From Blochmannia endosymbiont of Camponotus modoc (GTDB lineage Bacteria; Pseudomonadota; Gammaproteobacteria; Enterobacterales; Enterobacteriaceae), in contig NZ_CP097765.1 in NCBI RefSeq assembly GCF_023585785.1, forward strand, positions 600,001-632,000: a DNA stretch of 32,000 nt. The letters are read 5' to 3'. Below, one piece after another: positions 7,103 to 20,619 of this stretch; position 1 is the first letter of the stretch; each line of letters begins with the position of its first letter. A program made the translations under genes and the position numbers. The notes beneath the pieces are model-generated. The model had not been told where the DNA came from. It saw nothing but the letters and a program-made list of their open reading frames with translations, and did not search any database.

Positions 7103-8530
7103 TTAAACACTATAATATAGATCAAATTCTACAGGATGTGGCGTAGTAGATACTAATCTACTGTCTTCTTGACACAATAAAATATATGTATTAATATATT
7201 CCTGGGTAAAGACGTTGCCTCGAGTTAAAAATTCATGATCCTCATATAAAGATTTTAATGCTTCGTCAAGAGATTTAGCCATATGCGGTATGGATAATGC
7301 TTCTTTTTCAGAAATAGCATATAAGTTTTTATCAACCGGATCTCCGGGATGAATTTTATTGATAATGCCGTCTAATCCAGCCATAAGCAATGCAGAAAAC
7401 GCTAGATAAGGATTAGCAGAAGGATCAGGAAAACGAACTTCAACGCGACATGCTACGTCGCCTTTTTGTGATTTTCCTAGAGATGATGGAATGCGAATCG
7501 CACTAGAACGATTACAAGCAGAATAAGTCAACATTACTGGAGCTTCATAATTTGGAACTAAACGTTTATACGAATTAGTAGTTGGATTGGTTATAGCATT
7601 TAATGCTTTAGCGTGACGCAAAATACCACCAATATAAAATAAAGCGATATCAGAAAGATTGCCATATTGAAGACCTGAAAATAAATTAGTATCTTTTTTA
7701 TGTAAGGATATATGGCAATGCATGCCTGACCCATTATCATTCATAATGGGTTTCGGCATAAAAGTTGCAGTTTTCCCAGCATTATGAGCAACATTGTGTA
7801 CTACATATTTATATATTTGTATTTCATCAGCTTTTTTAGTAAGAGTATTAAATCGAGTTGCTATTTCATTTTGACCCGATGTTGCAACTTCATGATGATG
7901 AGCCTCTACGATCAATCCCATTTTTTCCATTGTTAAAGACATAGTAGATCGCAAGTCCTGAGAAGAATCTATTGGAGGCACTGGGGCATATCCACTCTTT
8001 ATTCTAGGACGATGACCTTTATTTCCGTCTTTATAAATTTTACCACTGTTCCATGATGATTCTCGATCGTCAAGGATTACATAAGATCCTGATATTGTTG
8101 TTGCAAAATGAATACTGTCAAATAAAAAAAATTCTGGTTCAGGACCAAACATAACAATATCGGCAATACCAGAATTATACAAAAATATTTCTGATCGTTT
8201 AGCTATAGACCGTGGATCTCTATCATAATTTTTCATAGTACTAGGATCAATGATATCGCAACGAATAATGATTGTAGCATCTTCATAAAATGGATCTATC
8301 ACAAAGCTAGTAAGATCAGGCATTAATATCATGTCTGATTTGCTAACATCTTTCCACCCTTTAATGGAAGACCCATCAAAAATTTTTCCATGATTAAATA
8401 AATGATCATTAACCTGTGTTTTAGGGATAGTAATGTGTTGTTCTTTTCCTTTTGTATCAGTAAAACGTAAATCAACAAATTTTATTTGATTTTCGTTTAT
8501 AATAGAAAAAATTTTTTCAATATTTGTCAT
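7103..8530 (-). CDS. glnA: Glutamine synthetase type I
   Basis: 475 aa. [51 protein letters not shown] and the C-terminal [12 protein letters not shown] match E. coli GlnA almost motif for motif. The NLY segment corresponding to the adenylylation tyrosine is retained. Confidence 0.97.
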
Positions 8531-9277
8531 ATTTATACTCTCAGCTATTATATATCATATGATGATAATATTACTAAATAATGCGCTACAAAATACCATC
8601 TACTAAGGCTCTTGTGATTAACATTTTTCAAAACTTTATTTAATCAACATATTTGCATTGACATAATTACCAATGTTACATATGCATGTAATGCATTGAA
8701 TCAGATCTATTGATCTTTTATTAAAATTTAATTTTTAAAAATAACACTCATATCTTATATTACTATTATTTTAATAAATAATCTAATGTAATAAAAATAA
8801 AAAATACTTGTATGTATAACTATTATTAATCATTTTTTAATTATTTTTAATTCAACATAGAAAAAATGTCAGAAATTTAATTGTGCTAATATTTTTGTAT
8901 TATATACATCATGAATACCATGAGGTGTAATCGCACATACACATTTTTGTATAAATTTAAAAAATTAATAATCTTATACGAGTTATTATTTTGTTGATGT
9001 ATATCATGCAAAATGAACTTACATTACAAGTATCATTAGCCACATTAAAAATAGTTTGAGGACTTATACAATACATTATTTGTGGTAGGCTGTTACTTCT
9101 ATAAACAAGAAATTATACACATTATATCAATACTACAGATTTACATCAAAAGATGCAACAATCTTCAATTTTAATAAATTTTTTAATTTTTATTATTTTA
9201 AAGAGACTGTTGCTCCTGAATATCAATTTCATGGATCAAGCAATACTAATTTTTTTGATTGCATATGTAGTTGGTAT

Positions 9278-9469
9278 TTATTTTTTAGTAATTAAGTCTT
9301 CTTCTATTTCTCTGAGAGCAAGTACGGTATATTTATCATTATTATTTTTTGTAATCAACGTTTCTTTTCCACCAATTTGCATTTGCCGTGCACGTCGCGC
9401 GGCAACTAATATTAAATCAAATATATTACCAACTTTTTCTACAGCATCCTGTACAGTTATACGTGCCAT
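9278..9469 (-). CDS. rpoZ: RNA polymerase omega subunit (short form, 63 aa)
   Basis: [36 protein letters not shown] is near-identical to the E. coli RpoZ N-terminus. It lies directly downstream of gmk, as in the E. coli gmk-rpoZ operon. It lacks the roughly 28-aa acidic C-terminal tail of the 91-aa E. coli protein. Confidence 0.9.
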
Positions 9470-9570: not shown

Positions 9571-10212
9571 TTATATATCTGGCAATAATAAATGATCGAT
9601 TAATGTTGCGTAGCGTATTTTTTGATGCGCTATTCGCAATTGCTCGGATAACATAATTGACTGTAAATGTATCAAAGCAATATTAAAATTATCATTTATG
9701 ATAACATAATCATATTCTTTAAAATGGCTAATTTCGTCCATCGCTTGGTCCATGCGTGCGGCGATCACTGTTTCTGTATCTTCTCCTCTCAGATACAATC
9801 GATGTGCTAATTCTTTCTTTGATGGAGGCAAAATAAAAATAGTATAGATATTTTTTGATATTTTACTGCGAATTTGTTGCGCTCCTTTCCAGTCAATATT
9901 CAACACAATATGTATGCCAGCGTTTAACATCATTTCAATATTACTTTTTGCGGTACCATAATAATGATTAAAAATAATAGCATATTCAAAAAACATATTT
10001 TTATCGATCATATATTTAAATGCTTTTTCTGAAATAAAATAATAATCTTTTCCGTGTATTTCTCCAGGTCTTTTAGTACGTGTGGTATAAGAAATAGATA
10101 GTTTAGTTGGATAAACAAAGCGATCATATTGTATTACAGTTTGAATTAACGTAGATTTTCCTGTCCCACTAGGAGCGGATATAATACACAATATTCCTGA
10201 ATATTTCATCAT
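9571..10212 (-). CDS. gmk: Guanylate kinase
   Basis: 213 aa. P-loop SAPSGTGKSTL, ...SYTTRTKRPGEIHGKDYYF... and ...LRGEDTE... are typical guanylate kinase motifs. Synteny with rpoZ supports the call. Confidence 0.95.
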   Translation of the reverse strand: MMKYSGILCIISAPSGTGKSTLIQTVIQYDRFVYPTKLSISYTTRTKRPGEIHGKDYYFISEKAFKYMIDKNMFFEYAIIFNHYYGTAKSNIEMMLNAGIHIVLNIDWKGAQQIRSKISKNIYTIFILPPSKKELAHRLYLRGEDTETVIAARMDQAMDEISHFKEYDYVIINDNFNIALIHLQSIMLSEQLRIAHQKIRYATLIDHLLLPDI

Positions 10213-10481
10213 AAAATAATCATATACATATTTGATTGCATAAATGACTAAGATTTATTACGTATGTTTTGAATAACTATATATTTGTCTCTAATTCATG
10301 TTAAACATTATTATTATATATTAAGATTGTTTTAATAGAAGATCCTCAATAAAACATTTTGTAATTTGATTACACTAAAGTATACATTGTTACTATCAAA
10401 TTACTAAAATTGTTAGTTCCACCGAGGACCTTATTTATGTTAATGAAAATCTATAGTGTAGTATGCGTGTATGTCGTATTG

Positions 10482-10922
10482 TTATCTTGCCATATTATTT
10501 TTTTGTTGTATTTCAAGTAAATTGCATACTTCTCTAAAGCTTTTAAGTTGTACATCAGACAAAAGGGAAAATATGCGATCTAAAATGATGTTATGTGTAT
10601 CTTCAGCAATACGTAATTTATCACGTCCTTTTTCTGTAATATAAACGTATTTTACTCTACGATCTGTCAGACTTTGTTGTCGACGTAACATTTCATCTTT
10701 TTCTAATGCATCAAGAACTGTTACAACGGTTCTTGATGAAAACCCCATGTAATTTTTAATGTCTGTTGCGCTGGTTTTTCCGGTAGTAATAAGATGCAAG
10801 ATTTTCATTTTAGACATTGAAAGACCTTCATTAATTAATTGGCCATTTATTTCCTTGCGTAAACGATGATAAATACGAGATAAGGATTCTACCATGTTTG
10901 AAATATCTGTTAATCTATTCAT
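10482..10922 (-). CDS. MarR/SlyA-family winged-helix transcriptional regulator
   Basis: 146 aa. The central segment ...MSKMKILHLITTGKTSATDIKNYMGFSSRTVVTVLDALEKDEMLRRQQSLTDRRVKYVYITEKGRDKL has the MarR layout: an HTH, then a wing carrying the DRR motif, then a helix. I do not recognise a specific ortholog. It occupies the interval where E. coli K-12 has dinD-yicG-ligB. Confidence 0.75.
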   Translation of the reverse strand: MNRLTDISNMVESLSRIYHRLRKEINGQLINEGLSMSKMKILHLITTGKTSATDIKNYMGFSSRTVVTVLDALEKDEMLRRQQSLTDRRVKYVYITEKGRDKLRIAEDTHNIILDRIFSLLSDVQLKSFREVCNLLEIQQKNNMAR

Positions 10923-11920
10923 AATTATTTGTCTCTATATTGAATCAATAACGATAATAAGACTGTATTTGGCAGTATCAGTTAATAATAGTCTAAAAAT
11001 AGTAATTATTATTTTTTGAAGTATTGTTTATTAAGAATAATAACTTTTCAGACAATTGTTTATATCTGATAATTAATTATTTTTTTTAATTAACTATTGC
11101 AGCGTATACCTCCTAATTTATTGTAATTTTACTAAATTAATATTTTGGTTTTATTAAAAAATAGCAGACATTATTAATTCAGAATATATATATTTTAATA
11201 TTTAATTTGTGTTGTTTTACTATTTATATTTTATCGGAGTTTTTTTAAATTTGAAATATGACTATCGGAAAAATAAAACTTCTTATAGTTTTGTTAAAAA
11301 ATAATTTTTTTATATTTTATGATTTATTTTTAATATTAAAATTCTATATATCTGCAAATAAACAGATCCAAATCAAAAATACAACAATTTTATTATAAAA
11401 TATAAAATAATATTTTATATTTTTATGAAAATAAAAATAAAAAATTATATATTTATATTAAAATAATATTTTTTGTTGAATCATATATTCTCGTATACAT
11501 TCACATTTATTTATAAAAAATAATAATATTAAAGGATATATATCAGTTAATTTATAGTAAAATATTAACTATATAAATTTATATAACACTTAAATAAAAC
11601 GGATTTGAGTACAAAAATTATATTAAAAACTTTTTATTAAAAATAATAATATTAAAACCTAATTTTTTAATAAATGAATCTACTTCATATATATGCATGT
11701 ATATAATAGTTATTGTTTATATATGCATATGTCTCTGTAGTTAAAGTTTAAGTGCATTAAATTTCAGTATTCAATATTACGTTTAATTAGATTAGTTGAT
11801 TAAATGAAACATTATTTGATAAGATTATAATATAATTAAGAATTGCAAAAATTATCAGATTATATGACCAATACAGATTTTAAATATGAAAAGATTTTAT
11901 AGGTGGGTACTCTGATTATA

Positions 11921-12802
11921 TCACTCAATATTTTGAGTTTGCTCACGTATCTGTTCAATAAGTATTTTTAAGGAAATTGCTAATTGAGTAATATAAGAAT
12001 TTATAGATTTAGAAGTTAATGTATTAGCTTCTCTATGTAGTTCTTGTATTACAAAATCTAGTTTCCTACCAACAGCTCCGTTCCCATCGAGAATACGATG
12101 CATCTCTTTGATATGAATAATTAGACGATCTACTTCTTCTGAAATATCAATTTTTTGAGCTACTATTAATAATTCTTGTTCCAATCGTATTGGGTCAGAA
12201 TAAATGCAAACATCTTTCATTTGTTCCAAGAGTGTTTTTCGTCTGCGCTCCAATATATTAGGGATATGTTGATGAATTTTGTTCACTTCAGCATACATTA
12301 GATGTAATCGTTCTATAATTTTATTTTTTAAAAAAATACCTTCTCTTTCTCTATCTTGTATCAAATTATGTAATGTTTCTTTAAAACATATTAATAATTC
12401 GGCATGAATATTATTCATATTATTTAAATTATTTTGTTTATACGTTATTACTCCTGGCCAAGATAAAATATCTATCGGATTAATTTCACCTTCATTAGTT
12501 AATGTTTTTACCCATTTTGCGTATAACACAAGATCATGCACCAATTGTTTATTAACAGTAAATGACTCTGTATTATTGTCGCAATTATTATTTATTTTGA
12601 TATGTAAAGTGCATTCTATCTTCCCCCTAATAATAGAATCTTTAATATTTTTACGAATTACCCATGACAAATTACACAGATATTTAGGTAAATCGATATG
12701 AATATCTAAATAACGTTGATTTAAAGAACAAATTTCCCAGATAACATTACCCCATGTATATTTCACTTCATGCCTTGAGAAAGCGGTCATGCTATGAATC
12801 AT
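11921..12802 (-). CDS. yicC: YicC-family protein (stress-induced, UPF0701)
   Basis: From ATG 12802 the product starts MIHSMTAFSRHE, aligning with E. coli YicC MIRSMTAYARRE. The end EQIREQTQNIE matches EQMREQIQNIE. AGGTGA lies 5 nt upstream of ATG 12802. The tracked start at 12811 is a GTG inside that SD. Confidence 0.9.
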   Translation of the reverse strand: MIHSMTAFSRHEVKYTWGNVIWEICSLNQRYLDIHIDLPKYLCNLSWVIRKNIKDSIIRGKIECTLHIKINNNCDNNTESFTVNKQLVHDLVLYAKWVKTLTNEGEINPIDILSWPGVITYKQNNLNNMNNIHAELLICFKETLHNLIQDREREGIFLKNKIIERLHLMYAEVNKIHQHIPNILERRRKTLLEQMKDVCIYSDPIRLEQELLIVAQKIDISEEVDRLIIHIKEMHRILDGNGAVGRKLDFVIQELHREANTLTSKSINSYITQLAISLKILIEQIREQTQNIE

Positions 12803-13512
12803 AACAATCACCTAAATTTTGTTAATATGTACAAAAATAAACTTTAAAGTTGCAATAATTTTATTTTGTCACGCATTCTTTAATTGAAATTGTTATTTCA
12901 TATATTTATATACATCAATTTAATTTTTAAAAAAAATTCAGATTTTTTTAATGCCTATAAAATTTTATTAATTAAATACATAGTAGTATGCACTATACTA
13001 CTATTGATGATTTTTTATCAAAATTATTGTTTATATTGAAAATATAAATCACTACAATAACACGTTCAATTTTATCTATAAAATAATTAATTTATTATTA
13101 TTTAGTAAAATAGCATAATAAAATATACTAAACATAATACGTTTGAAGTGTATAAAATAAAAGTTTTGTATACGACATATACAAATTTTAAACAATTTTT
13201 ATTGTATTTATTTTTAAGATAATTTTTCATTATAAAATAATTTATGAATTTATAGTAGATTTATATTCCTCATATATATCTTATATAACTTATTTGTTAA
13301 TAATTAAATATAATAAAATATTAAAAAATTATTTTAAAAATAAATAATCATTTGAAATTTAAATCAATCAAATTTATAGACCAATGGTCGTTACCATATA
13401 GCGATTAATAATTATTAATATATATACAAACATTAATATATTTAATTTGATCTTATTATCTTAATGAGATATTTATAATAAAATTATATGTATTGATAAA
13501 TTTAAAATACAC

Positions 13513-13544: not shown

Positions 13545-13994
13545 TTACATCGAATGCCCAAAACCATGTGACCCACGTTTGGTAGGTATAAATGATTTAA
13601 CTACAGAAAACTTAACTTGAATTATTGGCATAAAAACTAATTGTGCTATTCGTTTCCCAGGATATACAATATACTTTTTTGGCCCACGATTCCATAAAGA
13701 TACTATCAATTCTCCTTGATAATCTGAATCAATTAATCCCACCAAATTTCCTAAAACAATACCATATTTGTGTCCTAAACCTGATCGAGGCAAAATAACA
13801 CCTGCTATTTTTTTATCAGAAATATGTATCGCAATACCGGTAGAAATTAAATGAGTTTTTCCAGGATAAATAGTCAAAGGTTTATCCAAACAAGCTGATA
13901 AATCTAATCCAGCAGATCCTAACGTAGCGTATTTTGGCAAATAAAAATGCTTATAAATACGATTATTAATAATTTTAACATTAATTATTTTCAT
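13545..13994 (-). CDS. dut: dUTP diphosphatase
   Basis: From ATG 13994 the product starts [13 protein letters not shown] (E. coli MMKKIDVKILDPRV). Motifs [33 protein letters not shown] and RGSHGFGHS are present. The start overlaps the coaBC stop by 14 nt. The tracked start at 14015 would add 7 unaligned residues. Confidence 0.93.
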
Positions 13995-15189
13995 TATAAC
14001 GATTAATAATTTCATTAATAAGTTGTTGTGCTAACAATTTTTTTTTTCTTAAAGGCAATATAACACTTCCTTTATTCCAAAATAGATATAAAGCATTATT
14101 ATCACTATTAAATCCTTGGTTCATACGAGAAATATTATTAGCACAAATTAAATCTAAATGTTTACTAATACGTTTATCTTGAGCATATTTTTTTATATTA
14201 TTAGTTTCAGCGGCAAATCCAACGACATAAGGACGATTTTCAATTAACGACCCTACTTCCGCTACGATATCGGGGTTTTTAATCATAATTATTTTTAAAG
14301 TATTTTTATTCTTTTTAATCTTTTCAAGAGAAACATGACAAATACGATAATCTGATACTGCTGCACAACCGATAAAAATTTGTTGATCACTAATGTCTCT
14401 CATAACTGCTTCTTGCATGTCTAACGCGGAAATAACATTAATACGTTGCACTCGAATAGGAGTACGTAAATTTACTGGACCTGCAATTAATGTAACTTTT
14501 GCTCCTTTATCTGCAGCGGCTTGGGCGATAGCAAATCCCATTTTTCCTGAACTATAATTAGTGAAAAAACGAACGGGATCTAAGGCTTCGTGCGTCGGAC
14601 CGGCAGTAATCATGATATTAAGATGACTTAAAGAACTATCATGAGAAAAGTAATGTTTTACGTATTCAGCAAGTACTTTGGGATCCGTCATGCGTCCATA
14701 ACCAATATCATTACAAGCTTGACATCCATAATCTGGTCCCCATATTAAAACCCCTCTTTTTCGTAGAATATCTAAATTTGTTTGAGTTGCAATAGCTTTA
14801 TACATTTGTTGATTCATGGATGGAGCTACAGCAATAGGAGCTGTTGTAGCTAAACATAAACTACATAATAAATCATTAGCTAATCCCACAGATAATCTAG
14901 CTAATAAATTGGCTGTAGCCGGAGCAAGTAAAACTAAATCAGCCCATTTAGCTAACTTTATATGAGGCATTGTAGTTTCTATTTGAGGGGTAAGAAAATT
15001 GTCCAAAACTGGATGACATGATATTGTTTGCAAACTTAAGGGGGTAACGAATTTTTTTGCAGATTTTGTCATGATCACTCTTACTTCTGAACCTTGTTCT
15101 TTTAAACATCGTACAAGATCTATAGTTTTATATGCCGCGATACCACCGCTTACTCCTAATATGATATGTTTATTAATTAATCCCGTCAT
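13981..15189 (-). CDS. coaBC: Bifunctional phosphopantothenoylcysteine decarboxylase / phosphopantothenate-cysteine ligase
   Basis: From ATG 15189 the product starts [21 protein letters not shown] (E. coli [20 protein letters not shown]). Both halves are conserved: PSMNQQMY and [10 protein letters not shown] in Coa[11 protein letters not shown] and CAAVSDYR in CoaB. The tracked start at 15201 is a GTG 4 codons upstream. The coaBC-dut order matches E. coli dfp-dut. Confidence 0.95.
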
Positions 15190-18805: not shown

Positions 18806-19988
18806 ATAATATCCCAAAATAATCAGTTATTACATTCATAATGATTAATTTAATCATTTTACATGCATTTAACTATATATCAATATCGCTATGTTTTATA
18901 TAATATATTTTAATAGTCGATATTTATATAAATTTTAAAAAATAATTTATCTGAAAAATTATCTATGTTTCTGCTATTTTTAACAATTATGCTTATAGAG
19001 TATTTTTTTATTTTAAATTAAAAAATAATGAATTCTCATAAATATCCTTTAAAAATTAAACATTGTATTGTATACGATAAAACCATTAATTACTGATTTA
19101 ACATTTTTTGAATAATTTAAATAAATTGTTAATTATGACAATAATTAATGATTAGACAATACTTATAAAAACGATATTTATAACAAATAAATTATAAAAA
19201 CTATAAAATCTGATTAATTTTTATATAACTAAAAACTTAAATTAATCATCCAAACAAACACACATAATATAAGCATATTATTTTTTACATTAATAATTTA
19301 TATTAAAATTAATTATATTACAATATTCACAAATGTGAAAATCTTATAATTTTGTTGGTATAAATAAAATTTATTTATTCAAACTTATAAAAATATATAA
19401 AAATTTATTTTACAAATATATACATGCATCATGTATATAATTATTTTTAATATTAAATAATAATTTAGATGCACAACATAAATAATATTTTTAAAAATCA
19501 AATAATAAGATTAAATTGGAGTATGTACTGTATTCTTTTAGTTTTATCATAATTTATCTATTTCCACCGTAACGTAATGATAGACAACCGGACTACTCAT
19601 TCAGAATTAAATTATGTTAAAAACGATTTTTATTTCTGTAGCTTTAAATATTTTGAAGAATTTATTTTTTCTATGTTAAATATATTTACATTTCGATTTT
19701 AAATTATAAGAAATAATCTATATTAATATCATATAACTATGTATAATGAAATACATATTTCCAATATTGTTTACTGCATTATATTATACATAGATCTTTT
19801 CTGATGCAGTATAAAAGTATGATTACTACGTGTATAATATTTTTTAGTATTGCTGCATAATTACCAGTTACTATATTAATTTTTTTAGATATTATATATA
19901 AATTACGTGTAAAATAAATGTTAATTACTTTATCGGATTTGATTGCAAATTCATGTTATTATATTTCTAATTATATCTTATTATTTTG

Positions 19989-20016
19989 TTTATGCTGATA
20001 AAATTTTATCAGCATA
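19989..20016. repeat. 28-bp perfect palindrome (14-bp arms, no spacer)
   Basis: TTATGCTGATAAAA / TTTTATCAGCATAA; every position 19989-20002 pairs with 20016-20003. It sits in the 1.8-kb gene-free waaA / waaC spacer. Confidence 0.9.
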
Positions 20017-20619
20017 ATAAAACAGTCAATTTATTCGTAAAAAATGAATTTTTAGTAAAATTTCAACAATAAAATTAACAGTATCATGTATTTTAATTGT
20101 AATTTTTTCAAAAAAATAATAAAAATATATTTTTATTTAATCGAAAAATTAATATTTATTATTATTTGAAAGTTTTAATTTTCCTTAAATAATATTAAAT
20201 AGTTAAAATAACAAATACGCACAATGAAAATGTTCAAAAATTTAATATTTGAGAATTATATTCAAGTTTTATACCGATATAATTGTAAGAATATGCTAAT
20301 ACTAACATGATGAAGAAATTTTGGTGTTGTTTGTAAAACAAGCATTCATTCATTAATTAGATCTAATAATTTGAAGTAGTTTATAATTGAATGTTAAATG
20401 ATATTAATTTAAAAATATTGATATTCATCAATAAACAATATAATTTTTTTAGATATTATTCCTTTTATAAGAATACAATTATTTACTTTTAAACCATATA
20501 AACACTATCGTTCCTAACGGGTAGATATCTTTTTATTTATCAAAAAAAAATATCAATTTATAATTAAAGAATTAAAATTAATATAAGGTTTATATGAACA
20601 AGTTTAAGAAAAATGTTTT

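Follow-up and report, generated by a model that had tools for sequence, protein, structure and literature searches.

Obligate insect symbionts lose most transcription factors, and how they still regulate their genes is an open question. Proteins of the MarR family act as homodimers on a palindromic or pseudopalindromic operator, usually within their own promoter region, and the Asp-Arg-Arg motif of their wing contacts the minor groove. Here, we describe a MarR-family gene, called marR below, that bears on this question. It lies in a 32-kb stretch (the window, ~27% GC) of the genome of the Blochmannia endosymbiont of Camponotus modoc (NZ_CP097765.1, positions 600,001 to 632,000). The Baumannia ortholog, a "marR-like" repressor of unknown role, has been reported to be differentially expressed (PMC5592932), and the Wigglesworthia ortholog, WIGMOR_0357, is down-regulated in trypanosome-stimulated flies (PMC4233935); expression changes of the two orthologs are documented in PMC5592932, PMC4233935, and PMC12508126. 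A constrained "slyA" described in Wigglesworthia (PMC6401476, PMC5437351) may or may not be this gene. We found no functional study of the Sodalis-clade marR in the literature. Existing annotation already lists the gene as a MarR-family member; what is new here is its restriction to one clade, its ancestral linkage to gmk, its resistance to the acceleration of symbiont rates, its persistence in 0.2-Mb genomes, and a 33-nt element upstream of it. We put at about 60% the reading that marR encodes a functional MarR-type DNA-binding regulator of conserved specificity that is probably autoregulated and probably controls more than its neighbors.

The gene and its neighbors are arranged in the window as follows.

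10482..10922, minus strand: marR-family coding sequence, 146 aa (open reading frame [ORF] call, Pfam, alignment, and AlphaFold2 [AF2] model)
9571..10212, minus strand: gmk (guanylate kinase), invariant downstream neighbor of marR in genomes that retain gmk (ORF list, synteny)
9278..9469, minus strand: rpoZ (RNA polymerase omega, 63 aa), second conserved downstream neighbor of marR
11921..12811, minus strand: yicC, upstream neighbor of marR (ORF list)

The marR ORF starts with ATG and has no internal stops. The preliminary description of this DNA, made from the sequence alone, had placed an intact 146-aa ORF between gmk and yicC, and our coordinates agree with it, including the spacers of 269 nt toward gmk (10213-10481) and 998 nt toward yicC (10923-11920). 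It had also read the protein as a winged helix of the MarR type, and the searches bear this out. The protein scores 38 bits against the Pfam MarR model PF01047, for which the gathering cut-off is 24.6, and the HTH_27 and Sar/Rot models likewise pass. A profile of the orthologs matches MarR proteins in the PDB over residues 1-139, with BldR (3f3x) and FabT (6jbx) as the best matches (E ~1e-10). The AF2 model, built on a 91-sequence alignment, has a mean predicted local distance difference test (pLDDT) score of 94.5 and the canonical MarR order of helices (H) and strands (E), H-H-H-H-E-E-H-H. The predicted elements are H3-32, H36-45, H52-59, H63-75, E79-83, E91-95, H97-118, and H123-145, such that the predicted recognition helix is residues 63-75, FSSRTVVTVLDALEK, and the predicted beta-wing is residues 79-95, which carry a DRRVKYV motif. 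When the model was compared with the PDB by Foldseek, only MarR proteins were returned, with ST1710, BldR, MexR, MftR, and SlyA at template modeling (TM) scores of 0.81-0.85 and 12-24% identity. The wing residues D87-R88-R89 are invariant in 22/22 orthologs and at least 90% conserved in the 91-sequence family alignment, and near-invariance across the orthologs spans residues 11-99. Thus, the ORF encodes an intact MarR-family winged-helix protein.

The protein stayed far below all of the NCBIfam equivalog cut-offs (SlyA, MprA, HpaR, OhrR, AdcR, FabT, and TcaR models), in keeping with the earlier failure to assign it to SlyA, MarR, or EmrR. MprA/EmrR was rejected at 32 bits against a cut-off of 157 (NF008122), and the neighbors of the gene are gmk and yicC, not emrAB. 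The protein is 12% identical to E. coli MarR (5h3r structure), there is no marA or marB nearby, and E. coli has no ortholog of the gene. FabT was rejected at 38 bits against a cut-off of 200. OhrR-type redox sensors carry a reactive N-terminal cysteine around position 15. Since the only cysteine here is C133, near the C terminus, the protein is not a sensor of the OhrR type, and it reaches 26 bits of the 200 set by the OhrR model. The zinc-dependent MarR proteins AdcR and ZitR use His, Glu, and Cys as metal ligands; here the AdcR/ZitR model NF038251 gives 23.9 bits against 175, and H43 is not conserved among the orthologs.

A search of 5.8e9 proteins returned 79 homologs, which come from Blochmannia, Sodalis and Sodalis-allied symbionts, and free-living Biostraticola and Acerihabitans; one further record carries the label Martelella alba. 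The orthologs range from 58 to 95% identity. Identity to the window protein is 74-95% in Blochmannia spp., 82-87% in Sodalis spp., 83-85% in Wigglesworthia, 81-84% in Baumannia, 82% in Steffania, 80% in Doolittlea, 77% in both Gullanella and the Heteropsylla symbiont, 70-75% in Biostraticola, Acerihabitans, and the "Martelella alba" record, and 59% in two Nardonella genomes of ~0.22 Mb. In an exhaustive hidden Markov model (HMM) search of 1.84e9 cluster representatives, one 50%-identity cluster, scoring 269 bits, took in the whole family. It was followed by a Sodalis ligni fragment (P0079) at 101 bits and an accessory Serratia/Enterobacter MarR at 100 bits and 35% identity. Plasmid-borne relatives were set aside, being at most 34% identical and lying in an uninformative context flanked by insertion sequences. 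The orthologs are therefore an isolated group confined to this clade. We define this Sodalis-clade, gmk-linked MarR group by at least 58% identity, a near-invariant SATDIKNYMGFSSRT[VI]VTVLD, and a location immediately before gmk, with both genes on one strand. The window gene fits this group, with 84% identity to S. praecaptivus, SATDIKNYMGFSSRT[VI]VTVLD present, and gmk 269 nt downstream. Sequence and gene order show that it was inherited vertically and that its orthologs are confined to the Sodalis/Acerihabitans/Biostraticola clade and to the endosymbionts that arose from this clade; its nearest free-living orthologs, in the Sodalis clade, also lie beside gmk. Clade members with the ortholog are Acerihabitans, Biostraticola, Sodalis, Baumannia, Wigglesworthia, Blochmannia, Doolittlea, Gullanella, Steffania, and Nardonella. 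Intact copies are found in six Blochmannia, two Wigglesworthia, several Baumannia, and two Nardonella genomes, among others.

The position of the gene is shared across this clade. We found marR directly upstream of gmk-rpoZ, on one strand, in S. praecaptivus, S. glossinidius (at ~3.864 Mb, beside gmk), Biostraticola, Baumannia, Wigglesworthia, and 6/6 Blochmannia examined, with spoT and recG following gmk-rpoZ where those genes survive. The upstream neighbor differs: it is a glyoxalase gene with an ABC transporter in Sodalis, fabB in Wigglesworthia, an SDF transporter gene in Baumannia, and yicC in Blochmannia. In Nardonella, marR lies between a 5'-3' exonuclease gene and tilS, and gmk is not adjacent. 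The preliminary description had called the window position non-ancestral, noting that E. coli has dinD-yicG-ligB between yicC and gmk. The E. coli order is as it stated (yicC-dinD-yicG-ligB-gmk-rpoZ-spoT-trmH-recG), and E. coli has no DNA or protein ortholog of marR. However, the marR-gmk-rpoZ order is common to free-living S. praecaptivus and Biostraticola and to the symbionts. The Blochmannia location was therefore inherited from the Sodalis-like ancestor, and the term has to be given up. Judged by gene order, the position of marR differs only from E. coli, the genome that has no ortholog.

We then compared the rate of change of marR with that of its neighbors. Between the window and S. praecaptivus, identity is 84% for marR, 50% for gmk, and 73% for rpoZ. 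Between the window and Wigglesworthia, it is 83% for marR, 41% for gmk, 67% for rpoZ, 56% for L28, 62% for L33, 56% for coaBC, and 52% for dut; between two Wigglesworthia species, it is 94% for marR, 81% for L28, and 76% for L33. Both Wigglesworthia comparisons therefore show stronger conservation of marR than of L28 and L33, the ribosomal proteins encoded nearby. In the free-living group (Sodalis, Acerihabitans, and Biostraticola), marR (82-86%) resembles gmk (85-86%) and changes faster than rpoZ (96-98%). On the endosymbiont branches, compared with S. praecaptivus, marR stays at 76-92% and gmk drops to 37-63%. In the identity matrix (L001, L005, L016, L023, L026, and the window), marR identity to S. 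praecaptivus is 92% in Baumannia, 88% in Wigglesworthia, 84% in Blochmannia, and 82-83% in Acerihabitans and Biostraticola. These identities and the variant of the promoter block put the three symbionts nearer to S. praecaptivus than the two free-living genera. Nonsynonymous divergence (dN), calculated by the Nei-Gojobori method for six Blochmannia, averages 0.150 for marR, 0.338 for gmk, 0.307 for dut, 0.411 for rpoZ, and 0.431 for yicC. The marR value is 2-3 times below those of its neighbors, and the proportion of synonymous differences (pS) is similar, ~0.6, and saturated. The approximate omega (dN/dS) of marR in these genomes is 0.06-0.15. Synonymous sites show no unusual conservation, so that what is constrained is the protein and not a nucleic acid element embedded in the gene. 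Thus, marR is under strong protein-level purifying selection. The preliminary description, which proposed checking dN/dS and presence in related endosymbionts, understated this conservation: it exceeds that of L28 and L33, and the gene persists in 0.2-Mb Nardonella.

A gene-free stretch of 0.57-1.5 kb lies upstream of marR in all genomes compared. Alignment of the free-living relatives revealed a block of ~105 bp within it, 220-360 nt before the ATG, that is conserved far above its surroundings. An HMM of this block finds a syntenic match in 23 further loci, including Doolittlea and the window (E 1.9e-5 overall; 5e-7 among upstream regions). The features found upstream of marR in the window are as follows.

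11230..11274, minus strand: ultra-conserved noncoding block, an nhmmer match to the free-living block and a candidate promoter/operator module of marR
11228..11256, minus strand: promoter-like pair on the marR strand, TTTCAA (11256-11251), N17, TAAAAT (11233-11228), alternatively listed as TTCAAA-16-TAAAAT
10932..10936, minus strand: AGAGA Shine-Dalgarno-like motif, 9 nt before the ATG (alignments)
10923..11227, minus strand: putative AT-rich leader of ~300 nt, from the promoter-like element to the start codon (from the promoter assignment)

The S. praecaptivus 33-mer GTCATATTTCAAATTTAAAAAAACTTCGATAAA is identical to window positions 11230-11262 (minus strand) at 32/33 positions, with 0 such matches expected by chance. 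This 33-nt element lies within a spacer of 16% GC and is far better conserved than the neighboring proteins. In the 150 nt nearest to the gene, the preliminary description had seen no convincing operator; the conserved block lies farther out instead, ~310-340 nt upstream of marR, and is a candidate operator region only. Acerihabitans, Biostraticola, Sodalis, Doolittlea, and 4/6 Blochmannia all have a TTT[CA]AA-N17-TAnAnT pattern 220-360 nt before marR. Blochmannia carries the Sodalis-type spacer variant of the block, not the Acerihabitans/Biostraticola variant. In the free-living taxa, an inverted repeat, ATATCAC-N4-GTGATAT, lies ~35 nt further upstream, where variants partly retain the dyad, and it may be an operator. 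The relaxed pattern ATATNAN-N4-NTNATAT matched related loci at the syntenic site only, apart from chance matches in AT-rich genomes. The Shine-Dalgarno-like motif is (T)AGAGA in 6/6 Blochmannia and AGAGAGA in free-living relatives, and the leader region is poorly conserved between genera. The block and upstream region have no counterpart in E. coli. We infer from this pattern of conservation that the block would comprise the marR promoter together with regulator-binding sites, which implies the leader of ~300 nt.

We also considered whether the long upstream spacer holds a gene of its own. An RNA gene was rejected: neither the window nor any of five related loci gave an Rfam match, there was no tRNA, and RNAalifold gave an energy of ~0 for both strands of the block. 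The lack of a consensus RNA fold and of an Rfam match favors an element that acts at the DNA level. A small ORF opposite the block was rejected as well, as the frames that begin with ATGAC stop after 3-8 codons and are not conserved. Separately, a TTAGGAGG motif ~190 nt upstream of marR (window ~11109-11116, minus strand) is common to three Camponotus Blochmannia (including L007 and L038); it falls within the putative leader, with no obvious ORF after it.

On the other side of marR, folding of the spacer before gmk gave one feature.

10339..10432, minus strand: long imperfect hairpin, about -31 kcal/mol, z -3.0, in the marR-gmk spacer

Strong hairpins of unrelated sequence occur at the same place in other Blochmannia and in Baumannia (L007 5552-5603, L038 4568-4622, L041 4632-4671, L005 6595-6618); the one in B. 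vafer has a G+C-rich stem of 25 bp. Such a hairpin is probably a terminator or a stem that stabilizes the transcript, and its presence between the two genes suggests that marR is transcribed separately from gmk. In Sodalis and Biostraticola, a conserved TGTATAAT extended -10-like element precedes gmk. In S. praecaptivus (L001 8462-8592) and Biostraticola (L023 5473-5602), there is an inverted repeat just past the marR stop, (C/T)AGTAAAAAA ... TTTTTTACT(G/A), enclosing ~100 nt, which may be a structured 3' element.

In the ancestor of the clade, marR already stood immediately 5' of gmk-rpoZ-spoT. In our model for Blochmannia, it would form a unit of its own, with a putative sigma-70-like promoter block ~300 nt upstream, an AT-rich leader, the coding sequence, and the hairpin before gmk. 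By analogy with the family, the protein would be a homodimeric DNA-binding regulator, possibly with a ligand to which it responds. It would act on its own upstream module and so be autoregulated, and it would control more than one core target, as a pleiotropic regulator rather than a repressor of drug efflux. Purifying selection, the near-invariant recognition helix and wing, and retention through many genome reductions point to a conserved DNA-binding specificity. The preliminary description had taken the intact ORF as a sign that regulation persists. Purifying selection strengthens the part of this claim that concerns a functional gene, and the regulatory role is what the sequence would predict.

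Several observations weigh against this model. The promoter element went undetected in Wigglesworthia, Baumannia, and Nardonella, and ATATCAC-N4-GTGATAT is not recognizable upstream of Blochmannia marR. In DNA this rich in A+T, the promoter pattern by itself is expected ~0.1 times per 700 nt (an estimate), so the promoter assignment rests on the extended sequence match. The block motifs (AAACTYCGATAR and TCCGATA) do not occur above chance elsewhere in the 32-kb window; therefore, the site data lend pleiotropy no support. The omega values are approximate only, given that dS is saturated. In addition, the gene is broken or missing in some lineages: the Sodalis symbiont of Henestaris (L035) has a copy full of stops, S. 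ligni retains only the fragment P0079, Acerihabitans KWT182 (L034) has one frameshift, for which a sequencing error is possible, and no ortholog was seen in other mealybug symbionts allied to Sodalis. Thus, marR is dispensable in some backgrounds.

The losses just described are also what would be expected if marR were a decaying relic that is intact by chance. We regard that as next to negligible, because decay would bring dN/dS close to 1, whereas omega is ~0.1 and the gene is intact in 6/6 Blochmannia and in the Wigglesworthia, Baumannia, and Nardonella genomes listed above. The identity to Sodalis, dN 2-3 times below that of the neighbors, the Wigglesworthia comparison, and the identity matrix refute it. 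Orthology to SlyA/RovA, the countersilencer of H-NS, has somewhat more in its favor, as slyA has been described as conserved and constrained in endosymbionts, including Wigglesworthia (PMC6401476), published mention of a conserved "slyA" in Wigglesworthia and Sodalis would imply such an identity, and SlyA is among the structural matches (TM 0.81). However, the protein reaches 30.1 bits of the 120 required by the SlyA equivalog model NF002926 and is ~22% identical to SlyA structures, and E. coli has slyA but no marR ortholog. In S. glossinidius, moreover, marR at ~3.864 Mb and SlyA_2/SG1443 at ~2.41 Mb are different loci, and these coordinates rule out that the published SlyA_2/SG1443 (PMC7067036, PMC13588514) is marR. 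SlyA orthology is thus very improbable and effectively excluded.

A role as a dedicated local regulator deserves more weight. Under this explanation, marR would link expression of gmk-rpoZ(-spoT), and with it genes for guanine nucleotides or the stringent response, to some signal, and this would be the sole reason for its retention. MarR-family genes commonly control adjacent genes, and the adjacency of marR, gmk, and rpoZ on one strand has outlasted each rearrangement seen, while the upstream neighbors vary. Against this, Nardonella keeps marR without the linkage to gmk, a strong hairpin separates the two genes in most small genomes, gmk has its own TGTATAAT element in Sodalis and Biostraticola, and we found no convincing motif common to the marR block and the gmk upstream region. 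A single housekeeping operon would also hardly account for conservation beyond that of ribosomal proteins. We consider purely local control unlikely; the unlinked Nardonella gene, the hairpin, and the degree of constraint argue instead that control extends beyond the neighbors. Less likely still is an architectural, nucleoid-associated, or otherwise nonclassical protein, with RNA polymerase or RNA as a partner and a surface held by several interactions. Near-invariance over residues 11-99 takes in helices that usually vary among MarR proteins, rpoZ is close by, and the gene persists in a genome of 0.2 Mb, where dedicated transcription factors are generally scarce. Yet the fold is that of an ordinary MarR protein with a DRR wing, we saw neither an additional domain nor an unusual charge feature, and a sequence-conserved cis-block beside the gene suggests specific recognition. 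We therefore prefer the autoregulated DNA-binding regulator with targets beyond its neighbors. In a bolder form of this reading, which we hold doubtful, marR would be a clade-defining master regulator, the last or among the last dedicated transcription factors in Blochmannia, Wigglesworthia, Baumannia, and Nardonella, that answers to a host or nucleotide ligand and sets symbiont growth or core expression, with the 33-nt element as one copy of its operator.

The remainder of the window is occupied by housekeeping genes, as the preliminary description had said; this holds for ORFs of at least 90 aa. They are ubiD, dsbA, polA, engB, glnA, rpoZ, dut, coaBC, coaD, waaA, two heptosyltransferase genes, hldD, a rhodanese gene, grxC, secB, gpsA, cysE, pfkA, tpiA, and fpr. 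The window rpoZ (9278-9469, minus strand) is shortened, with the 63 aa noted above compared with 91 aa in Sodalis. Its divergence is erratic among Blochmannia: the B. floridanus and window copies are only 44% identical, and the locus of the Polyrhachis symbiont has no ORF of at least 45 aa matching rpoZ. In the window, glnA comes directly after rpoZ (7103-9469), so the ancestral operon has lost spoT, trmH, and recG here; polA follows rpoZ instead of glnA in B. vafer (L038) and the Colobopsis symbiont (L040). The coaBC and dut frames overlap by 35 nt (13981-14015), and an overlap of ~20-35 nt is also present in Wigglesworthia and the Colobopsis symbiont. Between waaA and the heptosyltransferase genes, a stretch of 1.8 kb (18818-20619) has ~16% GC and no ORF of at least 42 aa. 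It is probably the eroded remains of lost lipopolysaccharide core genes.

The gene, which has no characterized ortholog, has survived many independent genome reductions from Sodalis-like ancestors. Along the fast-evolving symbiont branches it hardly changes, while its neighbors lose half their residues. Culturable and genetically tractable S. praecaptivus has the same gene and the same element, so that the function can be tested directly there and the result transferred to unculturable Blochmannia, Wigglesworthia, Baumannia, and Nardonella. In addition, marR and its promoter variant may mark a Sodalis-like origin of long-branch symbionts, possibly including Nardonella. A marker of this kind is rare and independent of base composition artifacts, and it is relevant to the dispute over the ancestors of these symbionts.

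Several known systems resemble this one in part. With the solved and named members of the MarR family, such as ST1710/BldR, MexR of Pseudomonas aeruginosa, and FabT of Streptococcus pneumoniae, the protein has in common a length of ~140-150 aa, the six-helix and beta-wing fold, and the DRR motif. The structural matches among them reach TM scores of 0.83-0.85. Identity to them is only 17-24%, however, and no genes for efflux pumps, aromatic catabolism, or fatty acid synthesis adjoin the window gene. Compared with typical MarR paralogs, the group is far more tightly conserved and is kept in obligate endosymbionts. Its nearest full-length outside relative, the accessory MarR of Serratia marcescens and Enterobacter (WP_046899117 cluster, P0080), is 35% identical over 134 aa and has the same architecture but is sporadic, and the drop in score from 269 to 100 bits marks it as a separate family. 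The SlyA/RovA/Hor/Rap lineage of Enterobacterales is alike in its small MarR fold, wide and constrained retention that includes symbionts, long upstream regulatory region, and plausible pleiotropy. In contrast to that lineage, to which it is not orthologous, the window gene is found in the Sodalis clade only and is linked to gmk rather than to ydhIJK. Like marR, MetR of Buchnera, MetJ of Baumannia, and ArgR and CRP of the Donaciinae symbionts are regulators that survive extreme genome reduction. Unlike marR, they have orthologs in E. coli whose regulons are known.

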